IMG/VR virus record: IMGVR_UViG_2585427761_000013
Reading direction: 5' to 3' (one strand)
DNA: 4,300 nt
From: a virus
Taxonomy: Duplodnaviria; Heunggongvirae; Uroviricota; Caudoviricetes
Below the pieces are notes generated by a model that was not told the origin of the DNA, did not search any database, and saw only the letters and a program-made list of their open reading frames with translations. Below, piece after piece: positions 2,366 through 4,300 of this stretch (position 1 is the stretch's first letter; each line of letters opens with the position of its first letter). A program made the translations under genes and the position numbers.

Positions 2366-2943
2366 ACACGGCAGCGGAAGCCATCCGGGCGCTGTCGTTA
2401 CAGGTGCCCGGATTTCGCCGTCAGATGAACGAAGGGTGGTACCAGATACGTATTGCCGGTGATGACACGGCACCGGAGGCGGTGTACGCCCGTCTTCACG
2501 AACAGCTGGGTGAGGGAACGGTCATCCACATTGTGCCGCGACTGGCCGGGGCCAGAAAGGGTGGACTGCAGATTGTGCTGGGGGCGGCAGCCATCGTGGG
2601 GTCGTTCTTCACTGCCGGAGGCTCGATGGCGTTATGGGGTACAGCCCTGGCAGCCGGCGGTTTTTCTGCCACCACGATGCTGTTTTCACTGGGGGCCAGC
2701 ATGATACTGGGCGGTGTGGCCCAGATGCTGGCACCGAAGGCAAAAACACCGGATTACCGCGCAACGGATAACGGTAAACAGAACACGTATTTTTCCTCAC
2801 TGGACAATATGATTGCCCAGGGTAACCCGATGCCGGTGCCTTATGGTGAAATGCTGGTTGGCTCCCGCCGTATATCCCAGGACATCAGTACCCGTGATGA
2901 AGGCGGGGACGGAAAGGTCGTGGTTATCGGGCGGCAGGGGTAA
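2263..2943 (+). CDS. I: Tail assembly protein I: N-terminal ubiquitin-like (beta-grasp) domain ending in Gly-Gly, then a Gly/Ala-rich hydrophobic segment and a C-terminal domain, 226 aa
   Basis: The product (…ARICLHGDLQRFGRR…IHIVPRLAGARKGG LQIVLGAAAIVGSFF…QNTYFSSLDNMIAQGN…YGEML VGSRRISQDIST…VVVIGR) matches lambda gpI as I recall it. A GGGAGAGG stretch lies upstream of the ATG at 2263. The first 103 nt overlap the 3' end of K in a different frame, an overlap that lambda also has. Confidence 0.9.
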   Translation: MATTNAFCLASPPLARICLHGDLQRFGRRLSLYVNTAAEAIRALSLQVPGFRRQMNEGWYQIRIAGDDTAPEAVYARLHEQLGEGTVIHIVPRLAGARKGGLQIVLGAAAIVGSFFTAGGSMALWGTALAAGGFSATTMLFSLGASMILGGVAQMLAPKAKTPDYRATDNGKQNTYFSSLDNMIAQGNPMPVPYGEMLVGSRRISQDISTRDEGGDGKVVVIGRQG

Positions 2944-2944
2944 A

Positions 2945-2982
2945 AAGAATAAAAAAATCCCGCAGTGTTGCGGAACTGCGGG
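2945..2982 (-). terminator. Rho-independent terminator oriented for the minus strand (distal terminator of sodC)
   Basis: An 8-bp GC-rich stem (2959-2966 cccgcagt, 2975-2982 actgcggg) encloses an 8-nt loop. On the minus strand it is followed immediately by A-TTTTTTT-ATTCTTTTT (complement of 2945-2958). On the plus strand the hairpin is followed by agcgttacgaag, with no U-tract, so it is a poor plus-strand terminator. Confidence 0.6.
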
Positions 2983-3100
2983 AGCGTTACGAAGATTGAG
3001 TGTAAGGAATTATTCTTATGTCACGACAAAAACATTAACTCAGAGAGGGAGGATGTGCCGTTCTTTTCAGGGAGAAAGGATTTATCGTCCTGAGGAATAA

Positions 3101-3124
3101 AGGTAAGGGGCCCGCCCCTTACCT
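3101..3124 (-). terminator. Perfect 10-bp stem, 4-nt loop hairpin 6 nt downstream of the sodC stop; possible proximal terminator or 3' stabiliser
   Basis: The sequence aggtaagggg-cccg-ccccttacct is a perfect inverted repeat. On the minus strand it is followed by TTATTCC, a weak U-tract. No U-tract follows it on the plus strand. Confidence 0.4.
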
Positions 3125-3130
3125 GACTGA

Positions 3131-3658
3131 TTATTGAATGATGCCGCAGGCCATTCTCGCACCACCACCGCCCAGGGGCTCCGGATGGTCATGATGGTTA
3201 TCACCGCCAGCATGAAGCATGAGAGAACGCCCTTTAATCTCTTTTAATAAGTTCAGTCTCGGGGCCAGGACCGGGTAGTTCGCTTTTCCGTCATGCGTCA
3301 CGAACAGCGCAGGGAGGTCGCCCAGGTGTCCATCCGGAGACCAGGGGCCAAGATGTTTGCCGGTGTTTTTCGGGTCAAAGTGACCGCCAGCCGATAATGC
3401 TGCGACCGGTTTTCCGTCTTTCAGTGCCGGGGCGCAATTTCCTTTTTCGTGCACATGAAAACCATGAATGCCTTCAGACAGAGAGTGAAGGGCTGGTGTG
3501 AACAGCAGACCGTAGGGGGTCTCCTGAATGGTTATTTTTCCAATGCTGACTTCTTTTCCGTCAGCACTGACAAGGTTCATTGGGACTTCCTGTTCTGCTG
3601 CGTATCCGCATGATGCTGCTGTCAGCATGGCAATGGCAGCAATGATTTTACATTTCAT
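3131..3658 (-). CDS. sodC: Periplasmic copper/zinc superoxide dismutase precursor (SodC family), 175 aa, phage-borne cargo gene
   Basis: The minus-strand ATG at 3658 is preceded by GAGGG (complement of 3663-3667) and gives [24 protein letters not shown]…, a signal peptide. Cu,Zn-SOD hallmarks are present: [43 protein letters not shown] and [14 protein letters not shown], including both disulfide cysteines. The stop TAA is at 3131-3133. The longer listed ORF (3131..4165) is only an in-frame run lacking a stop. Confidence 0.9.
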
Positions 3659-3791
3659 AAAACCCTCATTAATTCCGTTAACAGACTGAGCTTGCTGGTT
3701 ACAGGGTAACAAACAGCGTTCTGATGATATCGCGCAATAGCTGTGCAATATCCTATCACTGCGATTAATAATACCAATTGAGAGGAACATT
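3659..3791. promoter_or_regulatory. Intergenic region between divergent sodC and J; presumed sodC promoter and operator region, also holding the J ribosome-binding site
   Basis: This 133-bp non-coding, comparatively AT-rich stretch is the only place a sodC promoter can sit. I could not find a clean sigma70 -35/-10 pair; TTGCAC and TATCAT-like hexamers exist but are badly spaced. The J RBS GAGAGGA is at 3780-3786, 5 nt before the ATG at 3792. Confidence 0.3.
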
Positions 3792-4300
3792 ATGGGTAAA
3801 GGTGGCGGCAGGGCGCACACGCCTCGAGAGGCGAAGGATAATCTCAAATCCACGCAGATGATGAGTGTGATTGATGCGATTGGTGAGGGACCGATAGAAG
3901 GCCCGGTGAAAGGCCTGCAGAGTATTCTGGTGAACAAAACCCCGCTGACGGACACGGACGGTAATCCCGTGATACACGGTGTGACGGCGGTCTGGCGCGC
4001 CGGGGAGCAGGAGCAGACACCACCGGAAGGCTTTGAGTCCTCCGGTGCTGAAACCGGACTGGGCGTGGAAGTGACGAAGGCAAAACCGGTGACGCGCACC
4101 ATTACGTCTGCGAACATTGACCGCCTGCGGGTTACCTTCGGGGTGCAGTCACTGGTGCAGACCACGTCAAAGGGCGACCGTAATCCTTCCTCTGTCCGGA
4201 TTCTGATTCAGTTACAGCGTAATGGCCGCTGGGTGACGGAAAAGGACGTCACCATTAACGGCAAGACCACCTCACAGTTCCTGGCCTCGGTGATTCTGGA
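3792..4300 (+). CDS. J: Host specificity / central tail fibre protein J, N-terminal part; continues beyond the window
   Basis: The ATG at 3792 follows GAGAGGA. The frame stays open to the window end, which is why the ORF track omits it. Hand translation gives [42 protein letters not shown]…[15 protein letters not shown]…[13 protein letters not shown]…TSKGDRNPS…, which matches the lambda gpJ N-terminus as I recall it. Confidence 0.9.

Follow-up and report, generated by a model that had tools for sequence, protein, structure and literature searches.

An antisense sodC gene of the SodC-F type as probable moron cargo between tail genes I and J of a lambda-type prophage contig

What is a gene on the opposite strand doing inside a phage tail operon? 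The contig IMGVR_UViG_2585427761_000013, from a tailed virus (Caudoviricetes), is called the window here and was analysed over its full length of 4300 bases. It carries on its plus strand the distal part of a lambda-type tail operon, in which tail gene I ends at position 2943 and the ATG of tail gene J stands at 3792, leaving a spacer of exactly 848 bp (2944–3791). The original prediction placed an antisense cassette with sodC, a gene for a Cu,Zn superoxide dismutase (SOD), in this spacer, and an open reading frame on the minus strand (3131–3658) bears this out. A moron is defined as an independently transcribed accessory gene that is expressed from a repressed prophage (PMC7380047; PMC7067206), and accessory loci are described as typically lying antisense inside late operons (PMC7067206). 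We assign a probability of about 0.93 to the reading that the I–J spacer carries a self-contained, moron-type sodC cargo, of the SodC-F type of the prophages of Shiga-toxin-producing E. coli. The definition of a moron fits on every point that the sequence could test: a position between genes, a predicted terminator of its own, and a distinct composition and history; for promoter and expression the account draws on the literature. The identity of the gene, the conservation of its residues, its position, boundaries and mosaic history, the hairpins and the distribution were all computed here. The gene and its biochemistry are already known, sodC being annotated as such at the I–J position in RefSeq and GenBank records and its product having been characterized in 2008 (PMC2569942), and one more copy adds no knowledge. 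The modest additions made here are the boundaries of the module (3047–3791), the recurrence of a near-identical cassette across diverged tail modules, always between I and J, and the reassignment of one hairpin from the cassette to the tail-module backbone.

The sodC coding sequence (3131–3658, minus strand) specifies 175 amino acids followed by a TAA stop and was identified as a periplasmic Cu,Zn SOD of the SodC-F type from Pfam, the PDB, the O157:H7 copy and an alignment of homologues. The product matches the Pfam profile Sod_Cu (PF00080) with E = 1.1e-32 and 113.7 bits (cut-off 28.9) over profile positions 3–133 of 133. It also matches 143 SOD sequences in the PDB (best E = 1.6e-62), and its best solved relatives (E of about 1e-61 to 1e-62) are those from H. 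ducreyi (1Z9N) and Y. pseudotuberculosis (2WWN) and Salmonella SodCI (1EQW); the H. ducreyi protein and Salmonella SodCI score 209–214 bits, against 192 bits for the chromosomal E. coli enzyme (1ESO). Residue conservation was read from an alignment of 122 sequences, comprising the window SodC, its 120 best database homologues and SodC of E. coli K-12. His68, His70, His93, His102, His111, Asp114 and Cys75 are invariant (122/122), and His149, Arg168 and Cys171 are conserved in 121 sequences, the remaining row having a gap. From knowledge of the family, we take copper to be bound by His68, His70, His93 and His149 and zinc by His93, His102, His111 and Asp114, with His93 bridging the two. The disulfide pair Cys75/Cys171 and the catalytic Arg168 are kept as well. 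The original prediction of a Cu,Zn-SOD with its metal ligands and both disulfide cysteines thus stands, as does its statement that the protein is diverged from chromosomal E. coli SodC (59% identity to the K-12 protein; 99 of 168 residues). It had also singled out a His-His-Asp-His stretch near the C-terminus. The stretch is present, as NHHDHP (residues 154–159) in the electrostatic-loop segment GGDN-x-x-D-x-P, but a special role in metal binding was rejected, as it is an ordinary variant of the clade: H-x-D-H variants among the 120 best homologues include HADH (35), HSDH (28) and HHDH (5), His155, Asp157 and His158 are the clade norm, and His156 alone is lineage-specific (10/122).

The start of the gene is equally complete. 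A Shine–Dalgarno sequence read from the sequence, GAGGG (3663–3667, minus strand), stands 4 nt before the ATG and is invariant in four alleles. Residues 1–20 (3599–3658, minus strand) form a predicted signal peptide with n, h and c regions, and the O157:H7 copy has the same N-terminus; the ribosome-binding site and the signal peptide that had been proposed for this gene were thus both recovered. The translation further contains a lipobox, AASC, at residues 14–17 (3608–3619, minus strand), which may enable dual processing by signal peptidases I and II, lipidation being a prediction; the alternative signal peptidase I site is Ala20/Ala21, giving a mature protein that starts with AEQ. By the full-length Sod_Cu match, the ligands, the cysteines, the arginine and the predicted export signal taken together, the sodC product is a Cu,Zn superoxide dismutase.

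The limits of the cargo were set by comparison with relatives that lack it. Among 152 phage records matching the window, 150 have no sodC and two have it, and the I and J genes of close relatives without sodC are 92–95% identical to those of the window, in keeping with the moron architecture first proposed. The I–J gap in sodC-less relatives measures 60 bp in lambda, 240 bp in PhiR5_1 and 343 bp in a CFT073 prophage. A blastn comparison of the window with PhiR5_1 and CFT073 gave homology over 2800–3046 (92.5% identity) that stops at 3046/3047 and is back at 3791/3792; an alignment of the region agrees, and the cargo module is therefore 3047–3791. It comprises the 3′ untranslated region, the proximal terminator, the coding sequence, the upstream region and the ribosome-binding region of J. 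The remainder of the spacer, 2944–3046 (G+C fraction 0.39), and the distal hairpin within it lie outside the inserted unit because they are common to sodC-less relatives; this segment is absent from two diverged sodC-bearing modules (L128 and L129). Comparison of the I–J junction with PhiR5_1 and CFT073 thus places the module boundaries at 3047 and 3791 and not at the ends of the whole 2944–3791 interval. The original prediction had named what would count against it, namely a product without SOD similarity or metal ligands, or an I–J interval identical in all close relatives; the similarity and the ligands were found, and the intervals differ.

The module and its flanks have separate histories. 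Compared with E. coli O157:H7 strain 86-24, the module is identical at 744 of 745 positions, with the 133 bp upstream of sodC and the 3′ untranslated region 100% identical, and the tail genes are 93–96% identical. The reverse is seen in E. coli cM8a, where I (95%) and J (94%) are close to those of the window and the cassette is only about 79% identical. The G+C fraction at third codon positions (GC3) is 0.51 in sodC versus 0.63–0.71 in the tail genes, and the sodC upstream region has a G+C fraction of 0.40. Atypical composition and an identity decoupled from the flanks in both directions give the module the distinct history of a moron. The identity profile and the composition carry the signature of a mosaic module that is exchanged through recombination in the flanking conserved tail genes.

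Downstream of sodC, the minus strand has two terminator-like hairpins, both of which fold far better than shuffled sequence (the scan found five terminator-like sites, against 1.1 expected). The proximal hairpin (3101–3124, minus strand) stands 7 nt past the sodC stop and is the cassette's own: a 10-bp GC-rich stem is followed by UUUAUU (−17.4 kcal/mol, z = −3.3), and the stem is kept in the 79% and 87% alleles, with loops that differ. The distal hairpin (2958–2983, minus strand) has a 9-bp stem followed by seven U residues (−16.1 kcal/mol, z = −4.1). The original prediction had assigned both to the cassette; both exist, but the distal one is part of the tail-module backbone and is common to sodC-less phages. 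These phages have the same stem, as do almost all of the 17 downstream variants with sodC in which the hairpin occurs, a 6-nt insertion or deletion falling in the loop, and modules L128 and L129 have the proximal hairpin only. As a predicted terminator, the distal hairpin could stop any antisense transcript ahead of gene I.

Several further observations concern the hairpins of this region. The distal hairpin is also found just downstream of I in two prophages without sodC or an annotated antisense gene, PhiR5_1 (locus L002, about 3258–3290) and CFT073 (locus L004, about 2558–2590); across the loci the 9-bp stem is followed by six to nine U residues, and in cM8a the stem is 1 bp shorter. The sodC-less relatives have different GC-rich hairpins, on the plus strand and with T runs, just upstream of J. 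These are located in the lambda I–J gap (locus L005, 1262–1290, AAACCGCCTGCGGGCGGTTTTGT), in PhiR5_1 (L002, about 3420–3455) and in CFT073 (L004, about 2760–2800), and in the window the sodC module occupies the place of this plus-strand hairpin segment. An Rfam scan of the window (E ≤ 1) returned only STnc400 at 3091–3167, with 23 bits versus a gathering score of 80 bits; we took the hit to be chance because the Gifsy-2, Fels-1, O157 and cM8a loci gave no match to this family.

Of 5426 complete E. coli genomes, 547 carry the cassette, which occupies 724 places in all, with up to five copies per genome, and is at least 99% identical in 542 E. coli records; the same 547 genomes carry it together with the I and J flanks, and the listed hosts are mostly O157:H7, O26, O111, O145, O121 and O103 strains. 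Two genomes of Stx2a-converting phages carry and annotate sodC at the same position. In 44 IMG/VR loci with a SodC 80–99% identical to that of the window, J lies divergently upstream and I convergently downstream wherever the contig reaches. The nearest non-phage (chromosomal) relatives of the window SodC are found in Serratia, Pantoea and Pseudomonas (62–71% identity) and not in E. coli; a donor search with one genome per species gave Serratia and Pseudomonas as nearest, at 62–68%, from which no donor could be named.

It is possible, if on balance unlikely, that sodC was the ancestral occupant of the I–J slot, that in the relatives without sodC it was deleted or replaced and that the distal terminator is a relic of former cargo. 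Alleles with 87, 80 and 60% amino-acid identity all lie antisense between I and J, including that of Fels-1 and those of modules in which I is only 62% identical, and sodC-less phages in which no antisense gene is annotated still conserve the minus-strand hairpin beside I; in the cM8a allele, moreover, the retained backbone spacer is about 55 bp longer than in the window, so the junctions vary from allele to allele. Such a history sits poorly with the short gap of lambda, which holds a different hairpin on the plus strand, and with the tblastn searches, which found no sodC remnant in the CFT073 or lambda gaps and gave for PhiR5_1 a 9-residue chance match (E = 2.7). Also against it are the GC3 of sodC, which clearly departs from the tail-gene values, and the nearly unchanged sequence of the cassette in tail modules that have themselves diverged, a mark of recent lateral movement. 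An ancestral sodC would alter the history only, and not the identity or function of the element. At the left edge of the cassette, one locus, L099 (IMGVR_UViG_2537562231_000026), departs from all other sodC loci downstream of sodC after GGCACATCC; no gene I was found on this contig, and the divergence at the junction suggests a rearrangement or insertion there.

At the other edge, cargo and tail operon meet closely. The right edge of the module is the start codon of J, and the J Shine–Dalgarno region therefore tracks the sodC allele: GAGAGG (3780–3785, plus strand, read from the sequence) lies within the cassette-linked segment, which co-varies with the sodC allele and not with J. Beside it, at most 25 bp away, is the candidate promoter of sodC, an extended −10 element, TGgTATTAT (3768–3776, minus strand). 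This element is a prediction from a relaxed promoter scan, which found only weak −35 elements and in which the conserved extended −10 was retained as the candidate; the pattern TGnTATnAT is invariant across four sodC alleles that are 79–87% diverged. The I–J spacer might be a dedicated and long-lived cargo slot, with a conserved antisense terminator in the backbone, an initiation region for J supplied by the cargo and possibly a coupling of sodC and J expression, a proposal that we regard as doubtful. If it were true, sodC transcription or the binding of a regulator could be mechanistically coupled to J expression, and leaky antisense read-through might damp stray tail-gene expression in lysogens. 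It is unlikely that the pattern is more than a by-product of recombination.

The function of the moron-type cargo can be approached through characterized proteins of the same type, SodC-F1 and SodC-F2, which are encoded by the prophages CP-933R and CP-933V of strain EDL933 (D'Orazio et al., 2008; PMC2569942). The window SodC has the same signal peptide and AASC lipobox as these, Leu112 as in SodC-F1, and the same I–J position. It is identical to the copies of O157:H7 86-24 and the Stx2a phages at 174 of 175 residues (99.4%); the sole non-synonymous difference from the O157:H7 copy is S137L (codon 137, window position 3249), which together with the lower identity of the tail genes distinguishes the locus from that of 86-24. 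By this comparison the window carries the same SodC-F cargo in a different mosaic tail module. Because the proteins differ by one residue, and the signal peptide, the upstream 133 bp and the 3′ untranslated region are identical, the properties of SodC-F can be transferred to the window protein with S137L as a caveat.

SodC-F1 has an activity of 19 380 U/mg compared with 6290 U/mg for chromosomal SodC; it is dimeric (30.6 kDa by gel filtration) where chromosomal E. coli SodC is monomeric, resists proteinase K and ethylenediaminetetraacetic acid, and exceeds the chromosomal enzyme in thermostability (PMC2569942). LipoP analysis and fractionation showed SodC-F1 and SodC-F2 in soluble periplasmic and membrane-associated forms, the latter by way of the AASC lipobox (PMC2569942). 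Epitope tagging showed that both are expressed in O157:H7 lysogens; expression occurs in exponential phase and anaerobically, is independent of RpoS and, for SodC-F1, increases within Caco-2 cells compared with chromosomal SodC, and a 299-bp fragment from upstream of a SodC-F gene drives lacZ in an RpoS-independent manner (PMC2569942). Mutants in sodC-F survive H2O2 less well (PMC2569942). By analogy with this work, the window protein would be an active superoxide dismutase, subject to the S137L caveat, and a dimer; on the same literature it may also be partly lipidated, be expressed in the lysogen independently of RpoS and contribute to H2O2 resistance. It is established that a prophage SodC-F gives pathogenic E. 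coli a periplasmic SOD that is more active, more stable and partly membrane-anchored. Because it is expressed when the chromosomal enzyme is not, it may plausibly serve fitness or virulence, as Salmonella SodCI does.

The course of events that we propose runs as follows. In a lysogen the late tail operon would be silent, and a promoter belonging to sodC, located in the AT-rich 133 bp ahead of the gene, would drive its transcription on the opposite strand. The transcript would end at the hairpin 7 nt past the stop, with the backbone hairpin before gene I as a back-stop. The precursor would be exported by its signal peptide to yield a protein that is either soluble in the periplasm, cut after Ala20, or lipid-anchored at Cys17; there the enzyme would bind Cu and Zn and dismutate exogenous superoxide, shielding the host cell from oxidative attack. 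Homologous recombination within the conserved tail genes on either side probably carries the module from one lambdoid prophage to another. Three links of this scheme are inferred: which promoter is used, that transcription ends at the hairpins, and how the module spreads.

Some points weigh against this account. A scan of the window for consensus two-hexamer σ70 promoters found none, and the published 299-bp fusion, on which the assignment of the promoter rests together with the conserved −10 motif, also contains 166 bp of J sequence. At residue 137 all 121 other aligned sequences have a polar amino acid (Lys, Ser, Thr, Glu, Asn or Arg), where the window has Leu. The data are compatible both with insertion of sodC and with its loss in the sodC-less relatives, and the role of sodC-F in the virulence of enterohaemorrhagic E. 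coli in vivo has been termed speculative (PMC2569942).

The substitution at residue 137 also invites the suggestion that the window copy is decaying or inactive, for example through S137L, and sits passively in a defective prophage. The exact protein is recorded on this one contig only, S137L may reflect private variation or an error in sequencing, and the intactness of the prophage is not visible from a 4.3-kb draft contig. We nevertheless consider an inactive copy very improbable: the open reading frame, ribosome-binding site, signal peptide, upstream region and terminator are intact, all catalytic and structural residues are kept, and the 745-bp module is one base away from the O157:H7 copy, whose protein type is active in EDL933 (PMC2569942). 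Less probable still is a chimeric or collapsed short contig that joined sodC to tail genes by mistake, since, for all that the contig breaks within repeated prophage genes and no complete E. coli genome exceeds 95.9% identity over its full length, the I–sodC–J order, spacing and orientation recur in 547 complete genomes, in two Stx2a phages and in all sufficiently long members of the 44 IMG/VR loci.

Other known systems place the moron-type sodC cargo among its kin, and the comparison originally drawn with sodCI of Gifsy-2 and the O157:H7 prophage copies proved correct. The sodCIII gene of Salmonella Fels-1 (STM0924) is likewise antisense in the I–J slot; its product is 60% identical, keeps all ligands and has an NHEDHP loop. 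It differs in having no lipobox cysteine, 53 bp between its stop and that of I, no backbone hairpin and an upstream region that cannot be aligned. Gifsy-2 sodCI (STM1044) is also a prophage sodC antisense to the tail operon, with 58–59% identity and an LISC motif whose cysteine is in a lipobox-like position. Its slot, however, is formed by M, a lom-like gene, sodCI and L rather than by I and J, and its promoter region is unrelated to that of the window. The upstream region of the window gene has no alignable similarity to the promoter regions of Gifsy-2 or Fels-1 sodC, and the regulation of sodCI is therefore not transferable to it. Salmonella SodCI, whose structure (1EQW) is among the best PDB matches, is dimeric (PMC2569942), and RNA sequencing has shown that Gifsy-2 sodCI is highly expressed in lysogens in which the lytic genes are silent (PMC7067206). 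A virulence role of Gifsy-2 sodCI has been shown in mice, whereas for E. coli sodC-F the evidence is in vitro sensitivity to H2O2 only (PMC2569942; PMC7380047).

Chromosomal E. coli SodC (b1646; PDB entry 1ESO) shares the fold family, ligand set, disulfide and periplasmic location with the window protein. Besides its low overall identity, it differs in a signal peptide for signal peptidase I only and an NMSDQP loop, and it is RpoS-dependent and of lower activity and stability (PMC2569942). With the lambda-type morons lom and bor (PMC7380047; PMC7067206) the cassette has in common an accessory gene between genes that are adjacent in relatives, a predicted terminator of its own and an atypical composition. 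Nothing essential differs; the peculiarity here is that the cargo takes the ribosome-binding region of J along with it.

The window is one entire draft contig, JOQE01000089.1 of assembly GCA_000713935.1, which breaks within repeated prophage genes, and each tail gene on its plus strand has a clear Pfam match. In order, these are the C-terminus of the tape-measure protein H (ending at 579), M (572–913), L (913–1611) and K (1622–2365; JAB and NlpC/P60 domains), followed by the two flanks of the slot. The left flank is the tail assembly gene I (2263–2943; Lambda_tail_I, E = 5.9e-16), identified also from the list of open reading frames and annotation in relatives, and the right flank is the 5′ part (first 169 codons) of the tail tip/host-specificity gene J (3792–4300 and beyond the window end; FNIII-A_GpJ, E = 5.9e-24), called J in relatives. 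Public annotations of gene I conflict: a start at ATG 2263 gives 226 amino acids and a 103-nt overlap with K (lambda and Stx2a-phage annotation), and an alternative start at the K stop gives 193 amino acids (RefSeq). Over all 4300 bases the best match among complete E. coli genomes is at most 95.9%, although hundreds of genomes match the sodC module by itself at 99.9%; the contig is either a separate mosaic tail module or, possibly, several prophage copies merged into a consensus in the draft assembly. A hidden plus-strand gene across the spacer was considered and rejected, the stop-free stretches of 40–92 codons being usual opposite a coding gene and showing no conserved frame; two small plus-strand reading frames (2813–3100 and 2965–3093), which start before or within the hairpin, likewise found no support.

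Accessory DNA is also seen elsewhere in related modules. The E. coli cM8a prophage has a second cargo slot between L and K (locus L008, 398–2423), filled by a P22 immI-like block with a ClpP-like protease, an Arc repressor, YlcI and an antirepressor with a P22AR C-terminal domain, and with an Rfam match to the sar RNA at 1427–1492 (67.6 bits). In Fels-1 (locus L007), the tail-fibre region beyond J holds a known non-coding cargo, the Rfam family isrG, at 385–663 (290 bits), with a second, partial copy at 747–928.

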